Program-made: the position numbers and the translations under genes
Notes under the pieces: model-generated
Told to the model about the DNA's origin: nothing
Database searches by the model: none
Seen by the model: the letters and a program-made list of their open reading frames with translations, nothing else
Origin: a virus
Lineage: Duplodnaviria; Caudoviricetes
IMG/VR virus record: IMGVR_UViG_3300042879_002674
Location: 1 to 56,755 of that record
Strand: one strand, 5' to 3'
DNA length: 56,755 nt
Shown here: positions 21,301-56,755 of the stretch, piece by piece
Layout: every line of letters starts with the position of its first letter
How positions within the stretch are numbered: position 1 is the first letter of the stretch

Positions 21301-21305
21301 CTTGC

Positions 21306-21338
21306 TAAATATAATAAAGAGATTTGGCATAGCCAAAC
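21306..21338 (-). promoter_or_regulatory. Early/host-type promoter, with a late-type ATATTTAT motif just upstream (about 21346-21354)
   Basis: 33-bp motif immediately upstream of the kinase ATG. Confidence 0.6.
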
Positions 21339-21353
21339 CTTTTATCATAAATA

Positions 21354-23052: not shown

Positions 23053-23520
23053 TTACAATATATCAATCAGATGTGGATTAGCCAAATCTTTCTTAAAATA
23101 TCGTCCTTGTATGTTATCATTGTAACTGTTTGTTTCTAAACAGCTAGTTGTGAATTGGTATTTAGCTTCAAGATATGATAGATGTTTTGATGTCCATGCT
23201 ATATCTAGTATTTCTCTATAGAATTTATCTTCACCTAAACGTGCTACATCTTCTAGTAATGGTTTACAACTGCCCCAATATGTTTGCCAATCTGACTCAG
23301 CGTATGAAACTTCTTTAGTTTTCTTACGACCAGGACCAGTTTGTTCAGCCATGGCTTTTTTACCTAACTTTTTAGTCTTTTTATGTTGTAAGAATTTTTT
23401 TCCAATATATATTCTACCATCAACTGTATTAGAAATAAGATAAACAAACCCAAATGGAGTATGTTCACCAAAATCTTCTATGTTTTCAACTTTTTTACCT
23501 TTATATAACCAATTTACCAT
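23053..23520 (-). CDS. GIY-YIG family nuclease-like protein
   Basis: FGFVYLISN...IYIGKK, YWGS, LE...YNDNI. Confidence 0.75.
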   Translation of the reverse strand: MVNWLYKGKKVENIEDFGEHTPFGFVYLISNTVDGRIYIGKKFLQHKKTKKLGKKAMAEQTGPGRKKTKEVSYAESDWQTYWGSCKPLLEDVARLGEDKFYREILDIAWTSKHLSYLEAKYQFTTSCLETNSYNDNIQGRYFKKDLANPHLIDIL

Positions 23521-37903: not shown

Positions 37904-37936
37904 GTTTGGCTTTCCAAGTTATGTTTATTATATTTA
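37904..37936 (+). promoter_or_regulatory. Early/host-type promoter, the only plus-strand copy seen
   Basis: GTTTGGC...TTATATTTA with the same 33-bp span, followed by an AAATAAAGGTTATG leader. Confidence 0.75.
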
Positions 37937-37953
37937 ATATATAAATAAAGGTT

Positions 37954-38283
37954 ATGAAAAAGACATTATTACTCGGTTTGACAGTATGTTTAATTCAATC
38001 ATGTACTGTTTTTAAACATAAACCTAATTGCAGTCAAGATATTGTAGATTTGGTTAATTATGAAGATACAATTAAAGTTGAATTTAAAGGTATTGATTCG
38101 TTAGTCTTTAAAAATAAAGATTACAAACATGTAGCTGATTCATTGATGGTTAACCATAATGATGTTTATATGAGGATTGATGTTCAAAATATTCATACAG
38201 GATATATTCATCGAATTATTTTTAGTAGAGGAACATTTAATCGTTACCCATATGATGAGACTAATTATAAATGGATCAAATAA
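37954..38283 (+). CDS. Putative lipoprotein
   Basis: MKKTLLLGLTVCLIQSC signal peptide/lipobox; has its own promoter and the standard leader. Confidence 0.75.
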   Translation: MKKTLLLGLTVCLIQSCTVFKHKPNCSQDIVDLVNYEDTIKVEFKGIDSLVFKNKDYKHVADSLMVNHNDVYMRIDVQNIHTGYIHRIIFSRGTFNRYPYDETNYKWIK

Positions 38284-43997: not shown

Positions 43998-44009
43998 TTA
44001 ACCATCAAA

Positions 44010-44153
44010 TCAACCCTTTAATAATTGTTTGATATGTCGAGTTTTTAACTCACTTATTTCTTTCTCTAATTGTTCTACTCGTTTACTTATAGTAAAGAGA
44101 TAAGTAATTGATAGAATTGTCTCAATAAGTAAAATAATTGTTAATAATAACAT
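44010..44153 (-). CDS. Small membrane protein; start revised
   Basis: MLLLTIILLIETILSITYLF TM helix plus coiled coil; the track start lies inside a tRNA. Confidence 0.55.
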   Translation of the reverse strand: MLLLTIILLIETILSITYLFTISKRVEQLEKEISELKTRHIKQLLKG

Positions 44154-44167
44154 AATAATAAATTTAG

Positions 44168-44241
44168 TGCGCCCTACAGGAATCGAACCTGTCACCCGCT
44201 GATTATGAGTCAGCTGCTCTAACCAAATGAGCTAAGGGCGC
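44168..44241 (-). tRNA. tRNA with CAT anticodon (Ile2 or elongator Met)
   Basis: Acceptor GCGCCCT/AGGGCGC, anticodon arm GCTGA-CTCATAA-TCAGC, T arm ACAGG-TTCGATT-CCTGT; no encoded CCA. Confidence 0.9.
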
Positions 44242-44246
44242 TATTG

Positions 44247-44387
44247 TACTCAAGGCAGGAGTTGAACCTGCACGGGCTGCCATTATAATGACCACATCTT
44301 ATTCAGACACTTTTTTACCCACGTTGTTATAACCATACGTCGCGTCTACCATCGACCAGGGCCTCCTGATCCTTTCGCCACTTGAGT
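44247..44387 (-). ncRNA. Oversized tRNA-like RNA (141 nt)
   Basis: Acceptor ACTCAAG/CTTGAGT, T arm GCAGG-TTCAACT-CCTGC, Leu-type D arm interrupted by a hairpin; non-canonical centre. Confidence 0.7.
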
Positions 44388-44391
44388 GTAG

Positions 44392-44463
44392 AGCTTCTTG
44401 TAGGAATCGAACCCACTTATCCTGAGTACAAATCAGGTGCATCACCTTTTATGCTTAAGAAGC
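44392..44463 (-). tRNA. tRNA-Thr(TGT)
   Basis: Acceptor GCTTCTT/AAGAAGC, anticodon arm CCTGA-TTTGTAC-TCAGG, T loop TTCGATT. Confidence 0.85.
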
Positions 44464-44475
44464 TTTTATATATGA

Positions 44476-44508
44476 TGAATATAATATCCATCTATTGGGA
44501 AGCCAAAC
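44476..44508 (-). promoter_or_regulatory. Early/host-type promoter driving the tRNA cluster
   Basis: 33-bp motif ending 12 nt before tRNA-Thr. Confidence 0.75.
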
Positions 44509-44522
44509 TCTTATTAATAAAA

Positions 44523-44545
44523 AAAGCCGGGCTTAACCCGGCTTT
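44523..44545 (-). terminator. Intrinsic terminator
   Basis: AAAGCCGGG / CCCGGCTTT stem followed by a T tract on the minus strand. Confidence 0.75.
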
Positions 44546-44570
44546 AAACGACTATCTATATTTTTATATA

Positions 44571-44846
44571 TTAGATATTATCTTCACCGGTATCGTTGGT
44601 ATTTTCCGTTTTTTTACGTGGAGAAGAAAACTTATCTAACGTATCAGCTCCCATTCCTATAGCTGTTATAATTAACACAGCGTCAACTAAATTATCAGCT
44701 GGTGCAAAATCAGCGTGAGAAAATGAGTTAATAGTCATGGTTGTACTTAAAAATAAAGCACCAAGTAATGCGATTACTGGTTTAACTGAAGTTGAGCCAC
44801 GTTCATCTTTGAACAAGTCAATGACCCATTGTTTAAAATTCATCAT
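44571..44846 (-). CDS. Two-TM membrane protein (holin-like)
   Basis: 91 aa, two hydrophobic helices, charged C-terminus, late-type motif upstream. Confidence 0.5.
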   Translation of the reverse strand: MMNFKQWVIDLFKDERGSTSVKPVIALLGALFLSTTMTINSFSHADFAPADNLVDAVLIITAIGMGADTLDKFSSPRKKTENTNDTGEDNI

Positions 44847-44883
44847 AATTATGTGTGTTTAAGTGTTTATTATAAATACAACA

Positions 44884-44909
44884 GAGAAAGGAGCTTTCGC
44901 TCCCTTCTC
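44884..44909 (-). terminator. Hairpin terminator
   Basis: GAGAAAGGAGC / GCTCCCTTCTC stem. Confidence 0.6.
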
Positions 44910-44929
44910 AATAATCAATCCCTAATTGA

Positions 44930-45733
44930 TTAAGCAGCAAACTCAGCTGCTAACTCATACAACTTAGCATTCAAATCTAAGTCTTGTCTGAAGTTCTTAA
45001 TCTTACGAGCTTTTCTAACTTTAGCTCCTGATTGATACTCAAACATACCTTGAGTGATCTTTTCTTGAATCACATTAAACACACTCCACAAATCAGTACC
45101 ACGATCTTCAGGTCTAGTAGCTGTAGTTAAGGCATTATAGTCAATTGCAATGTTTTGTGCTTGTTCCTCACCAAAACGTACTTGAACCGCTTTACGAGCA
45201 AACTCTAAAATCTGTTCTTGAGCTAGTTGTGTTTGTTTGAAACGATTCATTGACTCAACTGCTAACGGTAACGCTCCTACCATTGTATTAATAACAGTTT
45301 GTAACTCATTGAAATCGTACCCGTAGTGGCGAATCTTCATATTTTCAAACTCTTGAGTTGAAATTACTAATCCATTCTCACAAACCAATCGAAACAACCC
45401 AGCTGTAAATGTGAACGCATTTTTACCATCATGACTATTAGTTAATAGAATTTGTGGAAACACATTATCACCATCAGCACCCTCAATGAATAAATCATTG
45501 TTACGGAACACTACTAAGTGTTTTTGGAAACCTTCACCTTTACGGGCACGTACTTGTTTAGCATCTACTACACCCCATCCTAGTTCTTCCATATCATCAA
45601 TGATCTGTTTGGTTGAAATGTGTGAGTACTTTTGACTAGTACCTGGAGCACTTGTAGTTGTGAAAATTGAACTTGCTTTTTCTCTAATTTCAGAAGCAGT
45701 TAAAAACTGGTTGTTGTTTAAATCTAGTGGCAT
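44930..45733 (-). CDS. DUF932/DUF945-family protein
   Basis: LLTNSHDG...AGLFRLVCENGLV; DLWSVFNVIQE. Confidence 0.85.
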   Translation of the reverse strand: MPLDLNNNQFLTASEIREKASSIFTTTSAPGTSQKYSHISTKQIIDDMEELGWGVVDAKQVRARKGEGFQKHLVVFRNNDLFIEGADGDNVFPQILLTNSHDGKNAFTFTAGLFRLVCENGLVISTQEFENMKIRHYGYDFNELQTVINTMVGALPLAVESMNRFKQTQLAQEQILEFARKAVQVRFGEEQAQNIAIDYNALTTATRPEDRGTDLWSVFNVIQEKITQGMFEYQSGAKVRKARKIKNFRQDLDLNAKLYELAAEFAA

Positions 45734-45755
45734 AACCTTTATTTTTTATTTTTAT

Positions 45756-46052
45756 TTATAATTCTTGAATTAATGAACACATACGACCAATTGTGTTTCT
45801 ATATTTTTCTCTATAATCCATTCTCCATGGATCCTTATCTATATCTTGAGCTAAAAGAATTGCCTGGTTTGCATATATTTTTAACTTCTCAGATGTTGAA
45901 CCTTCAAATTCACCTTCTAAGGCATCAATTGTAGGTACAATAAATATCTTTTGAACTGCTTTACGGCCTCTTTTTCTAGGTTCAGCTGTGCTTACTTCTA
46001 ATTTAACTTCTTGTTTCTTTGTCCCGGGTGGGCGACCTCTTCTTTTTTCCAT
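45756..46052 (-). CDS. AT-hook-containing protein
   Basis: KRRGRPP and PRKRGRK. Confidence 0.65.
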   Translation of the reverse strand: MEKRRGRPPGTKKQEVKLEVSTAEPRKRGRKAVQKIFIVPTIDALEGEFEGSTSEKLKIYANQAILLAQDIDKDPWRMDYREKYRNTIGRMCSLIQEL

Positions 46053-46080
46053 AACCTTTATTTGTGTTTTTAATTATACC

Positions 46081-46113
46081 TAAATATAACATCCTTATCC
46101 TGGTGAGCCAAAC
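46081..46113 (-). promoter_or_regulatory. Early/host-type promoter
   Basis: Consensus 33-bp motif. Confidence 0.8.
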
Positions 46114-46115
46114 TC

Positions 46116-46286
46116 TTAACCGAAAATGATTGTCAAAGCGATATAAAACGCAAAATTAACAGTTACATTACCTAAGAAACTAACTAATTCCTGTTTAGTT
46201 GTTGGTTTTACCTCAGCCTTTTTATTCGCGATTACTCGAGCGATTACTGCTCCCAAAATCAAAATTGCAATTACTGTTGTGTTCAT
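46116..46286 (-). CDS. Small two-TM membrane protein; not in the ORF track
   Basis: MNTTVIAILILGAVIARVIANKKAEVKPTTKQELVSFLGNVTVNFAFYIALTIIFG; fills the space between two promoters. Confidence 0.65.
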   Translation of the reverse strand: MNTTVIAILILGAVIARVIANKKAEVKPTTKQELVSFLGNVTVNFAFYIALTIIFG

Positions 46287-46312
46287 AGTCGTTATTATTA
46301 ATTATTATATAT

Positions 46313-46345
46313 TAAATATAACATCCACTCACCAGGAAGCCAAAC
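46313..46345 (-). promoter_or_regulatory. Early/host-type promoter
   Basis: Consensus 33-bp motif. Confidence 0.8.
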
Positions 46346-46396
46346 ATTCACCCGGAAAGGTTACGAGAAGATACTAGAACGTTGAAAATTAATGGA

Positions 46397-47359
46397 TTAG
46401 ACGATTTCTAGAGTAACATCGTCACCTATCTCACGAATCACTGCTAAAGCGTCCTGAGTCGCTACTACTATAGTTGAGTAGTTATCATCATCATTTAACC
46501 CAACTACTTGTACTAAACCAGCGTCTTCAATTACTTCCTCAATTGAACCAACTTGATCAACAATTTCATCTAATTGAGCTACTTTAAGATTTGTAGTTCT
46601 CATTTCATATATACCATAATCTCCTTTAGATAGAGATAAACCTGATAATGCTTGTTTAATGTCGAGTAATACTTGAGGCGGTTCAGTAGATAGTATTAAG
46701 TGATCTACTCCTATACCTTCCATTAAACTAGCATCACTTATATCTTCAGGTGTGAATGGGACAATAATTCCACCTACTTCACCTCCAATGAAATTACCTT
46801 GTTTTAATCCTATAGGAGCTAACTTACTAATCCACAACTTCCAGCTACCAGGATATAAGATGTTATCTGAGAAAATTGTCTTATATGCTTCTAATAACAT
46901 AGTATACATCTTAACACCTAGTCCTTTGCCGCGGTACTTTGGGCTAACATACGTTAAATGTATCTCTGCGCCCGGTATGCGATATGGCTTAGTACGCCCG
47001 GAATTCGCATTAATATATATTTTTTCTACCTCTACTTGTCCTATAACATAATCATCTAAAGTAGTACCTTTAGTATTTACTAAATATAAAGTACCACGAT
47101 AAGTTGAAGGTACTATAAACTCATAATCACCATCAGATATAAGAGTTGTTTTCTTAAGTATCTTAGGGTTGAATGTAGCACCAGGCTTCAGATCAAAGTC
47201 CTCAGAGTTAAACTTACCTCTACTTACAGTAAAAAATTCATCTTCAGGTATTTGAAAGTCTTCTAAAAATGCTATTAATACCTGTTCTAGAGTGATATTA
47301 TCATCTAAGTCTCCACTACGTAGGTCTAATTCTTTAAGTAAGTCGGTGAGTTTTATCAT
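46397..47359 (-). CDS. GNAT-family acetyltransferase domain protein; start revised to MIKLTDLLKE
   Basis: Acetyl-CoA motif A: YVSPKYRGKGLGVKMY. Confidence 0.7.
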   Translation of the reverse strand: MIKLTDLLKELDLRSGDLDDNITLEQVLIAFLEDFQIPEDEFFTVSRGKFNSEDFDLKPGATFNPKILKKTTLISDGDYEFIVPSTYRGTLYLVNTKGTTLDDYVIGQVEVEKIYINANSGRTKPYRIPGAEIHLTYVSPKYRGKGLGVKMYTMLLEAYKTIFSDNILYPGSWKLWISKLAPIGLKQGNFIGGEVGGIIVPFTPEDISDASLMEGIGVDHLILSTEPPQVLLDIKQALSGLSLSKGDYGIYEMRTTNLKVAQLDEIVDQVGSIEEVIEDAGLVQVVGLNDDDNYSTIVVATQDALAVIREIGDDVTLEIV

Positions 47360-47386
47360 GGTCATAAATATTAAAAAAGTAAGAGA

Positions 47387-47402
47387 GGTCCATGCGTGGA
47401 CC
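47387..47402 (-). terminator. Hairpin terminator
   Basis: GGTCCA / TGGACC stem with a T-rich tail on the minus strand. Confidence 0.5.
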
Positions 47403-47436
47403 CCATCTTATTGCATCTTAATACGTATATACGTAT

Positions 47437-47607
47437 CTACAAACAAGTAATAATAAAATCACCAATAGCGTATAGGAGAGACAGCGATGACCATCCTAAA
47501 AAGAACCATGATGTTTTATACCAAAATTTCTTTGGTTCATCTTTATATAAGTAAAGATTGAGGGCATGTAGACCAGTTAATAAGGCCCATCCAATAATTG
47601 ATACCAT
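47437..47607 (-). CDS. Small membrane protein; not in the ORF track
   Basis: 56 aa, MVSIIGWALLTGLHALNLYLY...FFLGWSSLSLLYAIGDFIITCL. Confidence 0.5.
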   Translation of the reverse strand: MVSIIGWALLTGLHALNLYLYKDEPKKFWYKTSWFFLGWSSLSLLYAIGDFIITCL

Positions 47608-47608
47608 A

Positions 47609-47851
47609 TTATTCTATTGTTAAGTTATCTTCTTGTAGCATTTCTCTAATAACGTCTCTTAGACGGTAACATACATCCATTTCTTCAGGTGTTGCTTGAC
47701 CATTACCTTGTAGTGCGCTTCCGTACTTGTGGACGCTACGTAGTTTTTGATCTAGTTCCCAAAGTAAACTTCTATACTTGTATCCGTATAATGCAGAGTG
47801 TATTCCTTCTGCTTCCTCAACGAGGTCAAATTCTATTGTTAATTTTGCCAT
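47609..47851 (-). CDS. Hypothetical protein
   Basis: 80 aa; MAKLTIEFDL...LWELDQKLR. Confidence 0.65.
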   Translation of the reverse strand: MAKLTIEFDLVEEAEGIHSALYGYKYRSLLWELDQKLRSVHKYGSALQGNGQATPEEMDVCYRLRDVIREMLQEDNLTIE

Positions 47852-47866
47852 AATTTTAAAATTTAG

Positions 47867-47972
47867 TAGTCAGGACAGGAATCGAACCTGCTTCAGCTTT
47901 ATCATTCTGAGTGCCATTAGCTGTTAGTCTCAACCCTGGAAGGTGCTGCGCTTTCCAAAACGCCACCTGACT
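47867..47972 (-). ncRNA. tRNA-like RNA with an aberrant anticodon/variable region (106 nt)
   Basis: Acceptor AGTCAGG/CCTGACT, T arm GCAGG-TTCGATT-CCTGT, D-like GCG...CGC; no regular anticodon stem. Confidence 0.65.
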
Positions 47973-48088
47973 ATATACCTTTTTAAACGACGTCGAGAAG
48001 GCTAACTCTATCTCCTATACGATGAGAACAGTTACTTTGAGCATTGTCAAGAGGCTTACTGTGTTTTACGATCCCCTCGCGAGCGGGG

Positions 48089-48349
48089 CTAATTTTTTTC
48101 TATATGATTATATACTAATTTCATTACCCAAGCATCTACAAACTCATACATACCACATATGTTACGTGCTTCTTCTTCGGTATCATAATAAATTATACTA
48201 CCGTTTTCATCCTTCATGTAACCCATGTTTCTGAGATCTATGATTACGTATTTGCCTTCCATTAAATTTAAAACTTCATTTGGTTCAATACCAAATTTAG
48301 CATTTGGGTTATCATAATTGAAATAATGGATATTTTTTTGATCTTCCAT
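48089..48349 (-). CDS. Hypothetical protein
   Basis: 86-aa ORF. Confidence 0.55.
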   Translation of the reverse strand: MEDQKNIHYFNYDNPNAKFGIEPNEVLNLMEGKYVIIDLRNMGYMKDENGSIIYYDTEEEARNICGMYEFVDAWVMKLVYNHIEKN

Positions 48350-48353
48350 ATTT

Positions 48354-48449
48354 TTAAATTATTCCTCTTTGGACTAAATCGAGTACTATTATACCAACTA
48401 TTCCACCTATAAAAAATCCTATTAAAAAACTCTTTTCGTATTTTTCCAT
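48354..48449 (-). CDS. Very small membrane peptide; not in the ORF track
   Basis: MEKYEKSFLIGFFIGGIVGIIVLDLVQRGII fills the intergenic gap. Confidence 0.45.
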   Translation of the reverse strand: MEKYEKSFLIGFFIGGIVGIIVLDLVQRGII

Positions 48450-48450
48450 A

Positions 48451-48708
48451 TTAGAATCGTGCTAAAGGATCTGAAGTGATGATACCACCATCTTTTTCAC
48501 CTCGTGAAGTTAACATTTGTTCCTGTGGTATTACTTCCACTATAACGCCGTTAGCAGTGAATTTACCACCCTGTTTTAGCAACTTCGTGAACAGCGTTGC
48601 ATGCTTAGGTTCCCACGTTTTACTCGCTTCTACTACCACTGCTTTGTCTACTACCTTACCATCGAATTTAATAGTAATACCTTTTCTAATTGCTCTTGAT
48701 GAAATCAT
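48451..48708 (-). CDS. Hypothetical protein
   Basis: 85 aa behind a promoter copy at 48737-48769. Confidence 0.65.
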   Translation of the reverse strand: MISSRAIRKGITIKFDGKVVDKAVVVEASKTWEPKHATLFTKLLKQGGKFTANGVIVEVIPQEQMLTSRGEKDGGIITSDPLARF

Positions 48709-49025
48709 ATGTGTAACCTTTATTTTTTATTATATCTAAATATACGTATATACTTCCCGATAGCCAAACTTTTTGTTAAAGGAGTTTTTTCATTTCTTGC
48801 GATTTTTGGTCAAAGGGGTTAGTTCGGAATTTGGGGTGTGGTTGTGGGTAATATATATATGTATATACAAATCGGGGCGGGAAGATCGTTTACGATCTGA
48901 AGGTTGATCCATTCCCAGGGTTTTCAGGTATACCGGGTATATGGATATCAACGCGCATGGTAGCGCTTACGTCGTACTGTATATGTACATACCGTGTACA
49001 CGCGCACTCCCGCGACACAGGAGGA

Positions 49026-49187
49026 TCAAGCGTGGTCAGAAATGTAAACCACCTCTTCACTGGTCAGTGACACCGAAATTTGCTCGGCGATTGTCTCCAC
49101 CAGACTAGGTGACAGTTCACCATGTGGCACTTGCTGGCGATGTACTTCCATCATCACTAGTGCGGCGTTGTAGCTCATTGTTGTCAT
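49026..49187 (-). CDS. Small hypothetical protein; not in the ORF track
   Basis: 53 aa, MTTMSYNAALVMMEVHRQ...; coupled to the upstream stop. Confidence 0.5.
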   Translation of the reverse strand: MTTMSYNAALVMMEVHRQQVPHGELSPSLVETIAEQISVSLTSEEVVYISDHA

Positions 49188-49369
49188 TATAGTCGTTGGA
49201 GTTTTAATTGGACGAATTCGTTACACATGTCTGCTGTACCTACCATTCTACAAACACCATTCCAGTCTAGTACTTCGTATGCTGGTGCACTTGATGGGCA
49301 GTTGGAATAATTGTCTTCGGGGAACTGGCCCATTGTCTTACCAGTGGATTTGATTTGAAATCGTTTCAT
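49187..49369 (-). CDS. Small hypothetical protein
   Basis: 60-aa ORF with an A-rich leader. Confidence 0.55.
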   Translation of the reverse strand: MKRFQIKSTGKTMGQFPEDNYSNCPSSAPAYEVLDWNGVCRMVGTADMCNEFVQLKLQRL

Positions 49370-49518
49370 GTCTGTATGTTTTTATTATATATAAAATTGG
49401 ATTATTAAAAATGGGATGTCTAATGAGATGTATCTACGTTTTGGTACAACCGAGGTGCCCCAGGTGATCATTAAACCGATTTGGTTGTGAATCATTATTC
49501 TCATTCGCTTATATTCTA

Positions 49519-49728
49519 TCATGGTATGTCTACTTTTTCGATCCACACTTCATCACTTTCACCTACATAGTACATGCAGATCCCTTTGTACATGTATTGG
49601 GTTGTTCCTTTCAAGTACTCAACTATGTTATCATCCATGTAGTGAGCGTCTAACTCTATCACCTCGTCCTCCTCCATGTTTGAGAAACGATCTAAATTGG
49701 TCTCGATGTATTGAATTAATCTGTTCAT
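49519..49728 (-). CDS. Small acidic hypothetical protein
   Basis: 69-aa ORF. Confidence 0.6.
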   Translation of the reverse strand: MNRLIQYIETNLDRFSNMEEDEVIELDAHYMDDNIVEYLKGTTQYMYKGICMYYVGESDEVWIEKVDIP

Positions 49729-49741
49729 ACCTGGTTTTTAA

Positions 49742-49990
49742 TTAGTGTTTAATTTCGTAACTGAATAAATAACCACAGTCGTCATCGTACATGTCTATCT
49801 CAGCTGCTACCAGACCTGATAATTGAGACATTACATCTTCGTTTAGGCGTTGCCAGTAACCGATTCTTAAATGGCGTTCAGTGCCTCGGAATTGGATTTC
49901 ATCTTGCTTAATACCGTTGTTAGTTAAGATGTTCTCGATTGTTCTTTCAATTGTTGTTTGCGGTGCTTCGCTTTCTGATCTAAATTTCAT
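49742..49990 (-). CDS. Hypothetical protein; start revised to MKFRSE
   Basis: The track start falls inside the promoter motif. Confidence 0.65.
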   Translation of the reverse strand: MKFRSESEAPQTTIERTIENILTNNGIKQDEIQFRGTERHLRIGYWQRLNEDVMSQLSGLVAAEIDMYDDDCGYLFSYEIKH

Positions 49991-50052
49991 GTTATATCTG
50001 TTTTTAATTATACCTGAATATAACATCACCTGATCGGGAAGCCAAACAAGTG

Positions 50053-50190
50053 TTAACGAAGGGTGTCCACGGCTACCGTATCTGTTACTACGATCGGGAC
50101 TGTCTCACCATATGGACTCACCCAATATATGTCTGTTGTCGTCGGGGAACATCCCGCTAGCACAAGCGCTACTATAAGGATACGTACCAT
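50053..50190 (-). CDS. Small lipoprotein; not in the ORF track
   Basis: MVRILIVALVLAGCSPTTTDIYWVSPYGETVPIVVTDTVAVDTLR with canonical LAGC lipobox. Confidence 0.65.
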   Translation of the reverse strand: MVRILIVALVLAGCSPTTTDIYWVSPYGETVPIVVTDTVAVDTLR

Positions 50191-50720
50191 CTGTCTGAAT
50201 TATATTTGGCGATGTCGTTTGTCTCCGCCAGTAACTGGTACTGCTGTCCGACACTAGCATGGATATCCTCCAGAGCGTCTGACACTAGTAATCGCTCTCC
50301 CAGCAACTGTGCGAACGTATCATTGGATCTGTCTACCGTATCCTGGTCTGTCATTATCTTGAAGTAATTCGCTTCCGCTACCTCACTGATGAACATCCCG
50401 GAGTACATGCCCTTGAGGTTGTAGCGATGGACAAACTGGTCGGCGTTGCACCAGATGAATATGCTGTTGTCCTTATGTGCTAACGCCTCAGCCACTAGCG
50501 CATCCACGATGTACATGCCTGTTCTGAACCCAGATACGTTTAGCAGTCCACCTGGCGTTCCATGGCCTAACATGATCACCTGGTCGTGATCGTCTATCAT
50601 GTCCATGAGCTCTAGGCGGCTGCATCCGGTAGTCACTAGTGTGACGTCTGGTAAGCGATTGTATATCGGCGCTAGGAAGTCTGTAGATGGGTCTGTCGGG
50701 TGTATTACTAGTCGTTTCAT
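50172..50720 (-). CDS. Putative clan CD (caspase/gingipain/CHAT-like) cysteine peptidase; start revised to MKRLVIHP
   Basis: VIMLGHG and IFIWCNA, a His-Gly/Cys dyad each following a hydrophobic strand. Confidence 0.5.
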   Translation of the reverse strand: MKRLVIHPTDPSTDFLAPIYNRLPDVTLVTTGCSRLELMDMIDDHDQVIMLGHGTPGGLLNVSGFRTGMYIVDALVAEALAHKDNSIFIWCNADQFVHRYNLKGMYSGMFISEVAEANYFKIMTDQDTVDRSNDTFAQLLGERLLVSDALEDIHASVGQQYQLLAETNDIAKYNSDRWYVSL

Positions 50721-50908
50721 TTGTTTCGGCTTATTAATATTAGTGCCCAATATCCACCTATGGCTATTATAAGCGCTAGCGGTATCCAAAGTGGACTAGT
50801 TACCCACCACCATGACCAATCAATGTTGCCTGTTAATTTAAGTACTAGGAACACTAAGAATAATACCGTTCCAAATCCAATTCCGTTTGATGTGTTTTCG
50901 TTTGCCAT
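50717..50908 (-). CDS. Small Trp-rich membrane protein
   Basis: LFLVFLVLKLTGNIDWSWWWVTSPLWIP. Confidence 0.75.
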   Translation of the reverse strand: MANENTSNGIGFGTVLFLVFLVLKLTGNIDWSWWWVTSPLWIPLALIIAIGGYWALILISRNK

Positions 50909-50909
50909 T

Positions 50910-51155
50910 TTATTTATTTGCTATTTGATTCATAATTTCAAGTACATCATCAGGTGAACACCATCCACGAACATCATCATGCTCGCTCAGTTTCACCCAT
51001 TTCCTATCTGGGCCCCATGCTGCGACTTCAGCTGTGGTCTCACCTTCGTCCGAGTAATTGTTTTTACCAAACTGGACACTCATGGTGTATCCGTTCTTGA
51101 ATATCATATGGAACCCGTTATGATATTCGTTTTGTGTTGCTCTAAATTTGCTCAT
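50910..51155 (-). CDS. Hypothetical protein
   Basis: FKNGYTMSVQFG...AEVA...DDVRGW. Confidence 0.7.
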   Translation of the reverse strand: MSKFRATQNEYHNGFHMIFKNGYTMSVQFGKNNYSDEGETTAEVAAWGPDRKWVKLSEHDDVRGWCSPDDVLEIMNQIANK

Positions 51156-51415
51156 ATATTTAATGCTTTTCTTTGTACTTCAATAAACCATTCAATTGTC
51201 TTACTATCCTCCTTAACCGTTTCACTAGCGTCATTTAAAACGCAAACGTCAAAATATGATCTGTGATACTCCATACTGTCATGATAATTTTTATGATCAG
51301 GTTTGATAAACGTTACTCGTCCTCCATCCCCATCATCCACTACCTCATAACCTAATCCTGTTACCATTTCAAATACTAGCTTGTTAAGCGCTTTTCTTGA
51401 TTCTGTTTTATTCAT
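51152..51415 (-). CDS. Hypothetical protein
   Basis: 87 aa behind the promoter copy at 51438. Confidence 0.65.
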   Translation of the reverse strand: MNKTESRKALNKLVFEMVTGLGYEVVDDGDGGRVTFIKPDHKNYHDSMEYHRSYFDVCVLNDASETVKEDSKTIEWFIEVQRKALNI

Positions 51416-51483
51416 GTTCGTGTTATTTAATTATGACTAAATATAACATCACCTTTACCAGAGGCCAAACCTAGGTACAGAGA

Positions 51484-51501
51484 GGGGCCGCAAGCGGCCC
51501 C
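51484..51501 (-). terminator. GC hairpin
   Basis: GGGGCCGC / GCGGCCCC stem. Confidence 0.65.
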
Positions 51502-51535
51502 ATCTCCTATATAATTAAAAACACACATGAACTAC

Positions 51536-52054
51536 TTAACTGATCCTCTCTAGGTACATGTCCCCAAAGATGTCATCTATCTCATCACTTACCGAATCTG
51601 GATCCAAATCAATCGCACCATCAATTTCATCATGGATAGATCTAGCAATTGAATCTTGATCTAGCTCGATCTCAATCTGGTAACCATAACTCATAGATAG
51701 ATCAACTAAACTATCTGCGTCTAGGTTAGTGTCTGTCACTGCTTCCTTACATTTATCAATTATTCGCCCAGCCAACTTAGTGGCGAAGTCGATCATCTCT
51801 GCTCTGGTAAGGTGAACATGTCCTGCGTACTTATCATCCTCTGTTACCACATATGCACTTTCTACTACTGTTCGTTCCACATCACCAAAACCTCTAACAT
51901 CGAATTCAGGACCTTCGTCTACCACCTCCACAGGTGATTCTTCACATCCGCATCCACAGGCACCGTCACCACAAATGGTTTCACCATATACTCGTTTTCC
52001 AATTGCCTCAATCTTATCATTTAACTCCATTAATTGCTCTAATACTGTCTTCAT
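51536..52054 (-). CDS. Acidic hypothetical protein
   Basis: 172 aa; CGDGACGCGC cluster; resembles 55454..55801. Confidence 0.7.
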   Translation of the reverse strand: MKTVLEQLMELNDKIEAIGKRVYGETICGDGACGCGCEESPVEVVDEGPEFDVRGFGDVERTVVESAYVVTEDDKYAGHVHLTRAEMIDFATKLAGRIIDKCKEAVTDTNLDADSLVDLSMSYGYQIEIELDQDSIARSIHDEIDGAIDLDPDSVSDEIDDIFGDMYLERIS

Positions 52055-52115
52055 GTTATCTGTTTTTATTATTGATCTAAATATAATGTCTTATCCTCCG
52101 AGAGCCAAACCTACT

Positions 52116-52385
52116 TTAGTTAAGGTAAAACCCTATTTCCTGTACTTCGTTCTTGGCAAAATTTTTAGCCGACTGTAGGAAGTGTAGGTGCAAGTGCAAG
52201 GCATTTATGTCGTCCATAATCTCCCTAGTTGGTCTCATGTCTAGGAACATCATCGAGTTATGTTCTAGTTCCTGTATCTGTTTCAACGCTTGGTCTATCG
52301 ATTTATTAGCCGTGCTTAATATATCTAGGATCTGGTGCGCCTGAATACGCTCTAATACTTCGTCGGTGTGTTTATCGTAATCCAT
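52116..52385 (-). CDS. Hypothetical protein
   Basis: 89-aa helical ORF. Confidence 0.6.
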   Translation of the reverse strand: MDYDKHTDEVLERIQAHQILDILSTANKSIDQALKQIQELEHNSMMFLDMRPTREIMDDINALHLHLHFLQSAKNFAKNEVQEIGFYLN

Positions 52386-52386
52386 C

Positions 52387-52653
52387 TTATTTAAATTTAC
52401 TTATAATGTTTTTGATACAATGTCCTTCTCCTAAATTAATAGTCCAAACACTTCTAACCATTCTTTTTTTACCATCCTTAACTCCTACTACCTTCATAAT
52501 TCGTTCTTCACCTGTAAAACCTTTACATCCTTCCTTTCTCATCCAATAATAAAAAGTAATGTTTACACCATCTACCTTTACATCCTTCTCCCAATACTGG
52601 TTAATGCAATGATCTTTCGTTGAATTAATTTGTTCTTCTCTGAAATTTTTCAT
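52387..52653 (-). CDS. Hypothetical protein; start revised to MKNFREEQ
   Basis: The track start lies upstream of the promoter and hairpin. Confidence 0.65.
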   Translation of the reverse strand: MKNFREEQINSTKDHCINQYWEKDVKVDGVNITFYYWMRKEGCKGFTGEERIMKVVGVKDGKKRMVRSVWTINLGEGHCIKNIISKFK

Positions 52654-52713
52654 ATTCGTGTTTTTAATTATACCTGAATATAACATCCATGTTCGGCTAA
52701 GCCAAACAGAAGT

Positions 52714-52729
52714 GGGCCCCTTTGGGCCC
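52714..52729 (-). terminator. GC hairpin
   Basis: GGGCCC / GGGCCC stem. Confidence 0.55.
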
Positions 52730-52759
52730 CTTTCTGAAAAACACACACATGGCTGGGTA

Positions 52760-52969
52760 TTAACCCACTAGCTCGATAGTCTTCATACGACGACGAGACA
52801 TATTGTACATAGCGTTCGCTACGTCTTGGTTCACCGAACGGCGACCGTTAATGATGTTTGAAACATGACTGGTAGAATAACCAGTTGTCTCTGCTAGGCG
52901 AGCAGTGTCACCTTTACGTTGACGTGCATTGTAGAACGCCAATTTTGCTGTACGATTTAATTTACGCAT
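52760..52969 (-). CDS. Cro/XRE-like helix-turn-helix protein
   Basis: ARLAETTGYSTSHVSNIINGRR. Confidence 0.8.
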   Translation of the reverse strand: MRKLNRTAKLAFYNARQRKGDTARLAETTGYSTSHVSNIINGRRSVNQDVANAMYNMSRRRMKTIELVG

Positions 52970-53047
52970 AACTTTTATTAATTATTTATTTATATCTCAA
53001 TATACGATAGCACTAATGTTAGAGCAAGCTATCCTTAAGAAAGGGAA

Positions 53048-53074
53048 AGACCTAAGCTGATCAGGCCTAGGTCT
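53048..53074 (-). terminator. Hairpin terminator
   Basis: AGACCTAGGC / GCTTAGGTCT stem followed by TTCCCTTTCTT on the minus strand. Confidence 0.6.
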
Positions 53075-53200
53075 CCATTGTTGGGGCGCTTTGCTTCGCG
53101 TTCGAATCCCATGAGTAAGTTGGTTATTCATCTAACTGGCGTACGTTCCAGTCGATATAGCCTTGCCTAAGGGCCTTCCTCATTGTTACCAGATTAAATG

Positions 53201-53250
53201 TCTCATAATCTACCCTTTGGTCCTATAATCTCCCTTCGGGTCTCATAATC
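53201..53250. repeat. Imperfect 20-bp tandem repeat, about 2.5 copies
   Basis: TCTCATAATCTACCCTTTGG / TCCTATAATCTCCCTTCGGG / TCTCATAATC. Confidence 0.6.
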
Positions 53251-53262
53251 AACTACTGGTAT

Positions 53263-53351
53263 TGGTAGCCGGAGTGGGAATCGAACCCACACTGCCGTTT
53301 CGGGCAACAGGATTTTAAGTCCTGCGTGTCTACCTATTTCACCACCCGGCC
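53263..53351 (-). tRNA. tRNA-Leu(TAA)
   Basis: Anticodon arm CAGGA-CTTAAAA-TCCTG, long variable arm, T arm GTGGG-TTCGATT-CCCAC, encoded CCA. Confidence 0.95.
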
Positions 53352-53360
53352 ATTTGAGGC

Positions 53361-53522
53361 TTATGCCTCCGGAGTCGCTTCCGCTTGTTCAACCTCAGCC
53401 TTAGGCTTAGATGGACGTCCACGTTTAATTACTCCTCCGTTTGCTGCAACTCGTGCTGCGCGGGCCGCTAATCGTGCTTGACGTGCGCTACCCTCTACTA
53501 CTGGTCTTCCTTTTTGTGACAT
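53361..53522 (-). CDS. Small basic protein with two AT-hook-like motifs; not in the ORF track
   Basis: MSQKGRPVVEGSARQARLAARAARVAANGGVIKRGRPSKPKAEVEQAEATPEA; own promoter (53554) and AAATAAAGGTTATG leader. Confidence 0.75.
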   Translation of the reverse strand: MSQKGRPVVEGSARQARLAARAARVAANGGVIKRGRPSKPKAEVEQAEATPEA

Positions 53523-53586
53523 AACCTTTATTTATTTGTTTTTATTATTTATCTGAATATAACATACCTACTTGGCTGAGCCAAAC

Positions 53587-53859
53587 CTATCTACCCATTT
53601 CTTTCTCCCACTCATCCCCGTCTATAAACATCCCAGGTCCAGACCCTAGACTATCTACGAACTCTTGAACTTCATCAAACAACTCAGCATTGTCAACATA
53701 GTCATATAATGTTCCTGTTTTACTTGATAATGTAAAGTCAATTACTGTTCCATCTTCACCTGCCCATTCAGTATAGATTAGGATTTTTTCTGTTGGGTGG
53801 TCAATAACATAAACATTCTGTGTTATTCCTGATTGTGTGATTTGATTTCTTAATTTCAT
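53587..53859 (-). CDS. Hypothetical protein
   Basis: 90 aa between two promoter copies. Confidence 0.65.
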   Translation of the reverse strand: MKLRNQITQSGITQNVYVIDHPTEKILIYTEWAGEDGTVIDFTLSSKTGTLYDYVDNAELFDEVQEFVDSLGSGPGMFIDGDEWEKEMGR

Positions 53860-53910
53860 GTGTTTCTTATTTATGATTAAATATAACGTCCTGATCCCCC
53901 TAAGCCAAAC

Positions 53911-54180
53911 TTATTCGTGGATAAGATTCACTTCTTTTACCACTTCTGAAACATTAAACTCTCGCTCCTCAGCTACGGCTATAAGTTGTTTAATCTGTAG
54001 TGCGTCAAAGGCGTTATCTGGGTTTAATACGTCGGTTAAGGCCGTTATAAACGTCTTAAATACCGCATCATCCACATTGTGATAACTGATAACTCCTTTA
54101 ATAGTTCCAATTAACTTGCCGTAACGGGCGTGAATTGATTGTTCTGCATCTTTACCTGGCTCAATTACTAAATTTTTCAT
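53911..54180 (-). CDS. Hypothetical protein; start revised to MKNLVIEP
   Basis: The track start lies in the promoter motif. Confidence 0.65.
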   Translation of the reverse strand: MKNLVIEPGKDAEQSIHARYGKLIGTIKGVISYHNVDDAVFKTFITALTDVLNPDNAFDALQIKQLIAVAEEREFNVSEVVKEVNLIHE

Positions 54181-54248
54181 ATATCTGTTTTTAATTATAC
54201 CTGAATATAACATCGCTCTACCTGGAAGCCAAACCTAACACGAAAGAG

Positions 54249-54264
54249 GGGCCATAAATGGCCC
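54249..54264 (-). terminator. GC hairpin
   Basis: GGGCCAT / ATGGCCC stem. Confidence 0.55.
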
Positions 54265-54293
54265 ACCCTTCCTATAATTAAAAAACACACACT

Positions 54294-55097
54294 TTATTCC
54301 TCTTCGTCCGCCTCTGGCAAACTGTACTCAACTTGGTTAAAACCAATTCTATATTTGATATATGATTCAGTATCACAATCTCTGTTTTTACTGAAATATA
54401 CCTTTCTACTATCACTACCTTTAATTCTATCAATATGACACATTGCTTCGGTCATGTGTTTCAATCTGTTACTACCTGCAAAATCACCTGCTTTAGTTAC
54501 TTGTTGAATGTTAATAAACGATGTGTACTTTTTTAATTTATTACCACCTTTCTTAACTGTTGATTGTAAGTTCAAAAACCATAACTCCGCAGCGCTTTCA
54601 GTTGTACGGTAAGTATCTTTAAACATTTCAATTACCTCAGCAATACTATCAATTGCAATCACATCATAACCTTGGTCGAACACATACTCCATTGTCTCAC
54701 GAACCGTTTCAGTATAGTTCTTCAAAAATAATGTCGGTACAACCTTAAAACCAGGCATACGTTTACAATATTTGAAGTGACCAATTTCATCCATCTCACC
54801 ACTCACAAACAATACCTTTTTACCTTTAGACGCTAGTTTAGATAACATATCTAATACCACCGTACTCTTACCTGAACCTGGTCCGCCGCAGATAATCATA
54901 TTAACAGCAGGCATTAAACCCTTATCTGTTGATAAAATCGAATCCATCAACGTTCCAGTTGACATTGGGCGAAATACAGACTCGTTAAATGATAACTCAG
55001 AACCTTTAAATATTTGAACTGATTTTGGGTCGAACGCTACTGTTTCTTTAACTTTTGGCTTACGACCTCTTTTCTTTTGCATTACTAAATTTTTCAT
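54294..55097 (-). CDS. RadA/Sms-like RecA-family ATPase without Zn finger or Lon domain
   Basis: GGPGSGKST, VLFVSGEM, IAIDSI, QVTKAGDFAGSNRLKH, KNR. Confidence 0.8.
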   Translation of the reverse strand: MKNLVMQKKRGRKPKVKETVAFDPKSVQIFKGSELSFNESVFRPMSTGTLMDSILSTDKGLMPAVNMIICGGPGSGKSTVVLDMLSKLASKGKKVLFVSGEMDEIGHFKYCKRMPGFKVVPTLFLKNYTETVRETMEYVFDQGYDVIAIDSIAEVIEMFKDTYRTTESAAELWFLNLQSTVKKGGNKLKKYTSFINIQQVTKAGDFAGSNRLKHMTEAMCHIDRIKGSDSRKVYFSKNRDCDTESYIKYRIGFNQVEYSLPEADEEE

Positions 55098-55167
55098 GTG
55101 TGTGTTTTTTATTATGAATTAAATATAACATCATCTGACCCAAAGGCCAAACAAGAGGTAACAAATG

Positions 55168-55356
55168 TTACCCTTGAATCATCCTACCCTCCTCAAATAT
55201 AACCCAACTAAAATCTGAGTAATGTTCGCCTGGTGATAAGAATTCCTCTTTAATTAAATGATTATTTAACTCATCTTTAAAACATCTAATAGATGTAAAA
55301 TCATAAATGTCATTACGATCTACAAAGATCAAATAGGTGTAAATTTCTTGATACAT
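55168..55356 (-). CDS. Small hypothetical protein
   Basis: 62 aa between two promoter copies. Confidence 0.6.
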   Translation of the reverse strand: MYQEIYTYLIFVDRNDIYDFTSIRCFKDELNNHLIKEEFLSPGEHYSDFSWVIFEEGRMIQG

Positions 55357-55414
55357 GTGTTATTATTTTTTAATTATACCTAAATATAACATCACCTAAC
55401 CCAAAGGCCAAACA

Positions 55415-55438
55415 GAGGGACACATTCCTGTGCCCCTC
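55415..55438 (-). terminator. Hairpin
   Basis: GAGGGACACA / TGTGCCCCTC imperfect stem. Confidence 0.5.
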
Positions 55439-55453
55439 CATTTAAAGGTAATT

Positions 55454-55801
55454 TTACTTACCTAAACCCTCTAATACAACCTCAACTACACTCTCAACAT
55501 TCTCCTCATCCAACACCCAATCAATACTATCTACAACCTCACTTAACACTCTACCTCTACTAACTTTAACTTCTAAACCACCCATCACATCACTATTACG
55601 TTTAGTGTATAAGGCACCTCCAAAATCAAAATTATCTTTTTTACTTAACTCAAACTTCACACCATTTGCAACGGCATTACTAATTGTTTTAGTAAATTCA
55701 ATTAACTCCTCTCTTGTGAAAGTAATACTTTCATTATTAATTTCGTTTTCTAACTCTGCAATTTTTGCTTTTAAACCTAACAATTCTGCGAACTTGTTCA
55801 T
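55454..55801 (-). CDS. Hypothetical protein
   Basis: 115 aa; probable paralog of 51536..52054. Confidence 0.65.
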   Translation of the reverse strand: MNKFAELLGLKAKIAELENEINNESITFTREELIEFTKTISNAVANGVKFELSKKDNFDFGGALYTKRNSDVMGGLEVKVSRGRVLSEVVDSIDWVLDEENVESVVEVVLEGLGK

Positions 55802-55870
55802 ACTTTTTTGTTTTTAATTATTATTTTTTTATTTGACTAAATATAACATCCCTTTATTACAAGGCCAAAC

Positions 55871-56122
55871 CTACTTTACCCACTCTATAACCTCCCCTAA
55901 ACCGTCTTCTACACTAAACTCTACAGTACCATTCTCATCTTCCTCAAATTCAAACATGTCATTAACATCCTTATCACTAGTAAATAATACTGCATACTCA
56001 TTAATTACGCTTGAAATTAACTTTTCTTGTTCTGTTGTTAACGGCTCATTAAATATTTTTTCAACGTAGCCGTACTGTGAATTGTAAATAAACCCTGTAA
56101 CCCCTTCTTTTAATTTTAACAT
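55871..56122 (-). CDS. Small acidic hypothetical protein
   Basis: 83 aa between two promoter copies. Confidence 0.65.
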   Translation of the reverse strand: MLKLKEGVTGFIYNSQYGYVEKIFNEPLTTEQEKLISSVINEYAVLFTSDKDVNDMFEFEEDENGTVEFSVEDGLGEVIEWVK

Positions 56123-56197
56123 ATTATTTGTGTTTTTTTAATTATGACTGAATATAACATCAATGTTCAGCAGAGCCAAACAAAATGGTGAGGGAGT

Positions 56198-56395
56198 TTA
56201 AATACTCACCTCACAAATACCATAGTCGGTTAAACCATCAAAATCATCATCAAATACATTTCCTACATCAAACCCTGGAAATTCAAAGTTATACTCAAAA
56301 TCTGTGTGGTCAGTAACTGATAATACTAACTCCATTTCTCCGTGACCTTGTTCTTTTAACTCTGTTAATTGGTCGATTAATTCTTGTACTGTCAT
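56198..56395 (-). CDS. Small acidic hypothetical protein
   Basis: 65 aa, MTVQELIDQL N-terminus. Confidence 0.65.
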   Translation of the reverse strand: MTVQELIDQLTELKEQGHGEMELVLSVTDHTDFEYNFEFPGFDVGNVFDDDFDGLTDYGICEVSI

Positions 56396-56468
56396 GTGTT
56401 ATTAATTTTTAATTATACTTAAATATAACATCAATGACACACAAAGCCAAACAAAAGGTGAGGGAGGT

Positions 56469-56755
56469 TTAACCCTCCTTTTGCGCCGATAAGAATTTCT
56501 CTGCTTGGCTCCAGTTCTGAAACCATGGGTTGTCGTTGTACTTATTCACACTCACATTTAGGTCTATCTGGCCTGGGAAGTGATAGTCGATATGCCTAAG
56601 CACCTTTTGCACCAATGAGGACTTGACGTACACCCAAAACTGGCCTCCCTCGCTGTCGTAAAGGATCCCTTCTCTTGGCTTAAATACCTCTTTGAGTGAG
56701 TCCTCAATGGTGTAGTGAGATAATTCTCCCTTGGCGCACCCAGTTAGTTCAATTG
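56469..56755 (-). CDS. Hypothetical protein, start outside the window
   Basis: Open frame IELTGCAKGELSHY...AQKEG-stop running from the window edge. Confidence 0.6.
   Translation of the reverse strand, partial: IELTGCAKGELSHYTIEDSLKEVFKPREGILYDSEGGQFWVYVKSSLVQKVLRHIDYHFPGQIDLNVSVNKYNDNPWFQNWSQAEKFLSAQKEG

Follow-up and report, generated by a model that had tools for sequence, protein, structure and literature searches.

Leader-complementary elements in a conserved early cassette of an uncultured phage, a possible case of promoter-dependent start-site sequestration

Why do three early phage genes carry, directly behind their stop codons, a segment complementary to the translation leaders of the same phage? 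The question is raised by the IMG/VR virus record IMGVR_UViG_3300042879_002674, which was analyzed over its full length of 56,755 bp (hereafter, the window). The window is a whole phage-like genome in a single contig, with nearly all open reading frames (ORFs) on the minus strand. Its early region (44,000-56,755) is made up of small genes, the majority of them without any protein family, and holds 15 minus-strand copies of an early promoter, TTTGGCy-N13-GATGTTATATTyA, each followed by an A/C-rich leader of 18-36 nt. A purine-rich Shine-Dalgarno (SD)-like motif was lacking in 12 of the 16 leaders listed, and the other 4 carried AAAGGT. The promoter is consistent with a sigma-70 type with an extended -10, and presumably it also fits the Bacteroidota -33/-7 type. 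On the mRNA strand, the elements in question, which we call anti-leaders, are U/G-rich stretches located between a stop codon and a GC hairpin.

Three anti-leaders, all on the minus strand, were delimited in the window. A1 (54273-54292, 20 nt; GUGUGUGUUUUUUAAUUAUA) is an exact leader complement beginning 2 nt past the stop codon of a gene for a 267-aa RadA-like P-loop protein (55097-54294; RecA/KaiC/DnaB-C-like), and it contains no CAU, the complement of the start codon. An extended GC hairpin of 13 bp follows (54242-54272, core 54249-54264), and behind it lie the promoter (54233-54202), the leader (54201-54181) and the ATG of an 89-aa gene, together the predicted cis partner (54178-54233). 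A2 (52737-52751; CAUGUGUGUGUUUUU), which includes CAU, begins 8 nt past the stop codon of a 69-aa HTH_3 gene (52969-52760) and precedes a 10-bp GC hairpin (52708-52735, core 52714-52729); its predicted cis partner (52651-52706) comprises the promoter (52706-52675), leader and ATG of an 88-aa gene. Similarly, A3 (51510-51529; CAUGUGUGUUUUUAAUUAUA) includes CAU, begins 6 nt past the stop codon of a 172-aa gene (52054-51536) and is followed by a 12-bp GC hairpin with a CUUG loop (51479-51507) and by the promoter (51469-51438), leader and ATG of an 87-aa gene (predicted cis partner, 51413-51469). The nearest predicted partner of each element is the leader of the next gene in cis, which the original prediction had overlooked in favor of more distant leaders.

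Is the complementarity real? Direct string comparison bore out the perfect reverse complements that the original prediction had claimed, namely, 52737-52751 with 55095-55109 (15 nt), 54279-54292 with 55098-55111 (14 nt), 51510-51525 with 46063-46078 (16 nt) and 51510-51524 with 52658-52672 (15 nt). These pairs held as described, but two of the elements had been drawn too short, because the element of the RadA-like gene extends over 20 nt (54273-54292) and that of the 172-aa gene runs over CAT to 51529. Two weaker cases that had been added to the three fell to chance level: near 55443, no exact complement of at least 8 nt to any promoter-led leader was found, and at 44547 there was only a 9-nt complement. 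We then searched the mRNA strand of 44000-56755 for exact complements of any of 16 promoter-led leaders and compared their number with that in dinucleotide shuffles. At k = 14, 3 complements were present versus 0.04 expected, and none of 300 shuffles reached 3. When a trailer was defined as the 70 nt before each -35, 3 of 15 trailers held a leader complement of at least 14 nt (shuffle mean, 0.011), a number that 0 of 2000 shuffles attained. Genome-wide at k = 14, a complement-only control of equal composition gave 1 match versus 4 observed, and the fourth match (37941-37956) is a real plus-strand leader. It lies in the only clear plus-strand use of the early promoter with a AAAGGTTATG leader (37905-38280), which drives a 109-aa ORF (37954-38280).

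The anti-leaders could themselves be leaders of real plus-strand transcripts, as the original prediction had conceded, or chance matches between low-complexity sequences. Read on the plus strand they do look leader-like, with an ATG in two of the three; however, no plus-strand promoter-like site was detected at any of them, and the plus-strand mini-ORFs that would follow have only 4 and 8 codons, are not conserved and change frame in one relative (L148), A1 having no ATG at all. Chance is excluded by the shuffle and composition controls, plus the conservation described below. Both explanations are thus scarcely credible.

To what extent is the arrangement conserved? Relatives were gathered by scanning viral contigs with the promoter pattern and two anti-leader motifs, which gave 24 unique instances from the window and 15 other loci of related uncultured phages, including a 163-kb contig (L059), L175 and L349. 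All 24 instances had a constant order of stop codon, anti-leader, hairpin, early promoter, leader and ATG. The anti-leader began 1-10 nt past the stop codon and the -35 of the next promoter lay 29-202 nt downstream of it in every instance, the distance from arm to arm ranged from about 83 to 258 nt, and CAU was kept in 16 of the 24. A core, TGTGT.TTTTAATTATA, was invariant across 16 aligned sequences. A1 was invariant in 9 loci, and so was A2 in 8 aligned relatives, in which five different genes stand downstream of it. A3 was conserved in 7 relatives; in L091, where the upstream coding sequence has strongly diverged, the element differs by one extra T. The lengths of (TG)n and of the T-run in the elements vary by 1-2 nt. 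The (TG)n and T-run lengths of A3 are variable among relatives in the same way as the (CA)n tract of the RadA-like leader (55096-55107), where contigs from two RNA runs have TG inserted behind 55096 and L178 has one more CA. Two distant phages have versions of their own: L077 has a shorter anti-leader that matches its own odd leader AAAGCACAUG, and in L074 an element reading CATAACC...ATTTTTAATTAC faces a leader reading GTAATTAAAAAT...GGTTATG.

The hairpins behaved differently from the anti-leaders. Among the 24 instances there were 22 different hairpin sequences, all of which formed stems of 9-18 bp with energies of -15.5 to -22.7 kcal/mol. Compensatory stem variants occurred in relatives, including those of the hairpin after A1, and G.U pairs, which are possible on the mRNA-sense strand only, were present in 15 of the 24 stems (30 pairs in all). 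A hairpin consensus built with MAFFT and RNAalifold was poor, the stems differing in length and sequence, and stems were therefore counted per sequence instead. An invariant anti-leader core next to a hairpin preserved in structure speaks for selection on the anti-leader sequence and on the hairpin structure, rather than for a decaying relic, as far as sequence comparison can tell.

We also considered whether leader and anti-leader are the inverted repeats of a promoter segment that is flipped by a recombinase. Invertible switches are common in Bacteroidota, and the promoter is indeed flanked by inverted repeats of 14-20 bp. Nevertheless, it had one orientation in all 24 unique variants, which come from many samples, scans of 64 ORFs, 13 of them at E<=0.01 and the other 51 at E<=1e-5, found no resolvase or integrase family, and the repeats are leader sequence common to about 15 other promoters. 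An invertible promoter is thus very improbable.

A U-rich single strand beside a stable stem is also a common target of ribonucleases and RNA chaperones, so that the cassette might hold an RNA processing or protein-binding site whose complementarity to leaders is incidental. The invariance of the element would suit this idea. It is harder to reconcile with a complementarity that spans two separate leader blocks and the AUG, with the distant phage L074 having a version that fits its own leader, and with an enrichment that was measured against composition-matched controls. We therefore strongly doubt this explanation.

What would the anti-leaders pair with? When the sequences from stop codon to next ATG were folded, the anti-leader paired with the next leader at all three junctions (z = -2.8, -3.8 and -4.9), and only 1, 0 and 0 of 200 shuffles, respectively, folded as well. 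With 170 nt of upstream context, the leaders at 54180, 52653 and 51415 were partnered by the anti-leader in the minimum free energy (MFE) structure in three of three cases; the other leaders in read-through MFE structures paired with their own -10 region or stayed open. Accessibility, the unpaired probability averaged over positions -15 to +3, was compared between RNA begun at the gene's own promoter and read-through RNA. For the 89-aa gene behind A1 it fell from 0.89 to 0.22 in the read-through RNA, for the 88-aa gene behind A2 from 0.82 to 0.24 (AUG, 0.46 to 0.01), and for the 87-aa gene behind A3 from 0.92 to 0.19 (AUG, 0.86 to 0.00). Two other genes also dropped to 0.24, by pairing elsewhere. 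Among the relatives and the window, MFE structures paired 13-21 nt of the anti-leader with the next leader in 22 of 24 instances, including all four whose promoters lie 162-202 nt away, and the AUG was fully paired in 14 of the 16 instances carrying CAU. Furthermore, duplexes of upstream sequence and leader at or below -17 kcal/mol numbered 16 among 262 unique promoter instances, versus 2.2 ± 1.4 with shuffled upstream sequences and 6.8 ± 1.9 with swapped leaders (maximum 11 in 20).

An observation of another kind concerns the promoter at 56451-56420, the variable spacer of which contains UGUGUGUCAU (56428-56443). In read-through folds this spacer paired with the leader of the gene served by that promoter, at 56395, and with its AUG, whose unpaired probability changed from 0.79 to 0.04; here a start site may be hidden in a second manner, from inside the promoter.

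We tentatively favor, at less than even confidence, a promoter-dependent sequestration of the start site that resembles that of T4 gene e and operates within a cassette like the PeSLs of T4-like phages. The anti-leader would be the 5' arm of an RNA switch inside a repeated intergenic cassette, complementary to the early leader in its shortest consensus form, (UAUAAUUAAAAA)(CACAC)(AUG). The tails after the hairpins begin with GU and have no U-run (that after A1 begins GUGUUAGG), so that termination at the hairpin is probably incomplete, and RNA from the upstream gene would then carry both arms. In such read-through RNA the anti-leader may pair in cis with the next leader, and usually with its AUG, so that a large loop is closed and initiation is blocked, whereas RNA begun at the promoter between the arms would lack the anti-leader and be translated. 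Because the A/C-rich leaders are mostly without an SD, initiation should depend on an unstructured start region. With the anti-leader only 1-10 nt past the stop codon, ribosomes that terminate there could melt the helix for a short time and so couple the two genes.

This proposal has a known counterpart. The start regions of T4 genes e (lysozyme), soc, 49 and I-TevI are sequestered in long transcripts and free in those from an inner promoter (PMC3014915). As in gene e, upstream sequence of the phage studied here is predicted to pair with the start region, including the AUG, and a predicted promoter lies between arm and start codon, as it does in 24 of 24 instances. Unlike in T4, where timing arises from early long transcripts and a late inner promoter, both promoters here are of the same early class, their consensus being the same, and the long and short transcripts would not belong to different temporal classes. 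Moreover, 83-258 nt separate the arms here, with a hairpin and an entire promoter between them, and the 5' arm is a generalist, transferable element derived from the leader consensus, present at three junctions, shared among phages and directed at leaders without an SD. For Flavobacterium johnsoniae, initiation tuned by mRNA structure is described (PMC6847099); this agrees with the leaders here, at which, for lack of an SD, structure alone would decide initiation.

Several findings weigh against sequestration in cis. A search of the window and its relatives for partner-specific covariation found none. The anti-leaders stayed invariant while the cis leader changed, five different downstream genes following A2 and three following A1, and the module moved with the upstream gene and not with the gene supposedly controlled. 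In the window, the cis leaders are weaker partners of A1, A2 and A3 (-13.2, -12.6 and -17.8 kcal/mol) than leaders elsewhere. The best partner of A1 and A2 is the RadA-like leader with its ATG and (CA)4 tract (55095-55119), which belongs to the host gene of A1 (-20.3 kcal/mol) and matches A2 in 15 of 15 nt including the AUG (-21.6 kcal/mol), and that of A3 is the leader at 52653 (-21.8 kcal/mol). With an inner promoter of the same class as those upstream, the arrangement lacks the timing that operates at T4 gene e, and what the phage would gain from it is unclear. Two of the 24 instances were unpaired in the MFE structure, and the folds are permissive evidence only, because A-rich leaders pair with any U-rich stretch. 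Finally, the sole RNA data are metatranscriptome contigs, without transcript ends or strand. Four metatranscriptome runs contained contigs of relatives at 90-99% identity, with neither strand nor ends shown and DNA possibly present; one of the contigs (X20, record 14; 182 nt, strand not shown) covers 54195-54376 and hence the gene end, anti-leader, hairpin and promoter.

Much of this evidence would be expected if the anti-leaders acted in trans or end to end. Transcripts would then end, or be trimmed, at the stable hairpin, and the anti-leader, directly before this protective 3' structure, would serve as a seed that pairs with shared leaders, of its own gene or of others, and damps early translation or shuts it off. 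The elements match the consensus leader better than the cis partner, with the best partners lying elsewhere, as the perfect 15/15 match of A2 illustrates. Their invariance while cis partners change is what a generalist would show, the module stays with the upstream gene, and A1 is retained even with the next promoter at a distance of 189-202 nt. A composition of U and G only would in addition permit wobble pairing with many leader variants. Set against these points, the absence of a U-run means that no defined 3' end is predicted, the cis leader would occupy the anti-leader one to one on read-through RNA, and the seed, at 1-10 nt past the stop codon, would be covered by ribosomes that terminate there. 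The RadA-like leader, moreover, is changed in 4 of 8 relatives in which A1 and A2 stay the same, and A2 does not follow these changes. Action in trans or end to end is therefore possible but doubtful. A stronger version, in which the modules would be generalist antisense RNAs, that is, stable 3' fragments of the three early mRNAs pairing with essentially all early leaders and their AUG with the help of G.U pairs, we regard as unlikely.

Two known systems bear on these antisense readings. Enterobacterial small RNAs derived from 3' untranslated regions (UTRs) carry their seed next to a stable terminal hairpin, and here, too, a short complementary segment stands directly 5' of a stable hairpin in 24 of 24 instances. 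The likeness ends at the tail, which starts with GU and lacks the U-run of those RNAs, and the host is probably one without Hfq. The original prediction envisaged a 3'UTR-derived RNA, for which a terminator with a U-run would be expected; the hairpins lack one. Terminator-like stems are numerous in the early region (13 versus 2.6 expected). A canonical hairpin followed by T7 stands at about 44520-44545, upstream of an early-type promoter (44507-44476) that directly precedes tRNA-Thr and tRNA-Met and drives these tRNA genes and no ORF (44391-44507), which indicates that real U-run terminators exist in the genome, unlike after the anti-leaders. The second system is the icaR mRNA of Staphylococcus aureus, whose 3'UTR pairs with the start region in its own 5'UTR (PMC3868564). 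The RadA-like trailer similarly complements its own leader over 13-14 nt, and the end-to-end pairing suggested by the original prediction is thus plausible for this gene (-20.3 kcal/mol), but the HTH gene showed no match to its own leader and the 172-aa gene a weak one (-12.1 kcal/mol). Pairing with the own leader is therefore confined to one of three genes, and the target is an A/C-rich leader without an SD, whereas in icaR it is an SD. Of the broader antisense proposal, the complementarity beyond chance and its conservation in relatives while the flanks diverge are retained and would fit a role at the RNA level, though not the specific mechanism that had been named. Because the anti-leaders match the minimal consensus leader and do not track their partners, sequence comparison cannot separate cis from trans; the element appears to be a generalist.

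Could the inverted copy instead matter as DNA? It might be a second site for a regulator, for example the phage HTH protein, which would then bracket the promoter, or it might be left over from cassette recombination, with gene conversion from the many leaders holding the copies uniform. In sequence, the copies agree with the DNA leader consensus rather than with the local partner, an HTH_3 gene adjoins, and the cassettes are recombination break points with different genes on either side, the gene before A2 being a different one in L171, as described for PeSLs (PMC2839356). However, the 1-2 nt variation in (TG)n and T-run length would shift the register of a protein site but be tolerated by RNA helices, and the spacing of the two arms is not fixed (about 83 to 258 nt). 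An operator at a promoter would have no use for the start-codon complement, yet 16 of the 24 instances retain it. Every instance is oriented so as to give complementarity on the mRNA, and in the neighboring hairpin the compensatory changes and G.U pairs are specific to that strand. A role at the DNA level is thus quite unlikely.

The cassette as a whole recalls the PeSLs, which combine a stem-loop with an early promoter and are sites of gene shuffling in T4-like phages (PMC2839356 and PMC4122927). Both recur between genes as units in which a G/C-rich stem-loop is joined to a strong sigma-70-like early promoter and to the beginning of the small gene that follows, and in both, relatives differ by gene swaps with break points at the cassettes. 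In our material, stem-loop and early promoter recur in many copies among small family-less genes, and genes are replaced at the cassettes: five different genes follow A2, three follow A1, and L171 has another gene in front of A2. The likeness is drawn from sequence alone, in a phage not established as T4-like, terminator activity and mini-circles being features of the PeSLs; furthermore, the available parts of the two papers mention no leader-complementary segment. We note besides that arrays of a G-rich repeat of about 11 nt (GGTAGGnGATCnGG-like) stand between hairpin and next early promoter in L154, L144, L195, L059, L015 and L077, the distance from the A1 element being about 190 nt in L154; in the window only single ...TAGG copies are present, immediately ahead of several -35 boxes.

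Regarding the genome and its likely host, the phage encodes a gp25-like baseplate protein, a SegE-type GIY-YIG endonuclease, a PD-(D/E)XK nuclease and three tRNAs. Pfam matches include the SegE endonuclease (23056-23520; 4e-25), a Zeta_toxin-like P-loop kinase domain (20506-21348; 1.9e-12) and DUF932 (44933-45733; 2.2e-31). An Rfam scan gave a tRNA at 53266-53351 as its sole match and no family for the anti-leader element. Between tRNA-Leu and the HTH_3 gene, the direct repeat GTCYYATAATC occurs three times on the plus strand with 20-bp spacing (53200, 53220 and 53240), and the HTH gene has a weaker promoter-like site of its own, seen by eye near 53010-52982 and missing from the promoter scan list; the repeats may be operators of the HTH protein. 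Near-identical DNA is present in lake-water metagenome runs, 18 lake DNA runs containing the region. In an annotated phage collection, no close relative was found with the genome as a DNA query, nor with the RadA-like protein, whose best matches were below 31% identity. A search of bacterial genomes with the promoter pattern returned at least 120 stretches, many of which must be chance, and about 30 of the 80 listed were Bacteroidota by name. L349, a 2741-bp contig in a metagenome-assembled genome named Chitinophaga sp., has two copies of the promoter pattern, an A1-type anti-leader and a hairpin; most likely, a piece of phage DNA was binned here together with a Bacteroidota genome, which gives a weak hint to the host. 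Bacteroidota as host phylum is our guess, for which the promoter-pattern matches are only a hint.

A literature search, the scope of which excluded supplements and most subscription journals, found no description of such an element. The PeSL-like cassette, with an arm that may sequester as in T4 gene e, has good support as a sequence feature under conservation, and its mechanism is unproven. If the pairing works, small early genes would be insulated twice, by the hairpin against upstream transcription and by the anti-leader against translation of read-through RNA, and one module would fit any neighbor because it is complementary to the consensus leader. Sequestration in cis, if true, would show that start-site structure is used for control where SD pairing is not, and the cassette would be a small part usable for gene insulation. 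If the anti-leaders act in trans, they would represent a new kind of phage timer. Should the generalist antisense version be true, the phage would have a self-timed shut-off of early translation made of RNA only, a functional counterpart of T4 RegB/RegA without a protein, and, the module being mobile, such a switch could spread among phages that share the leader.

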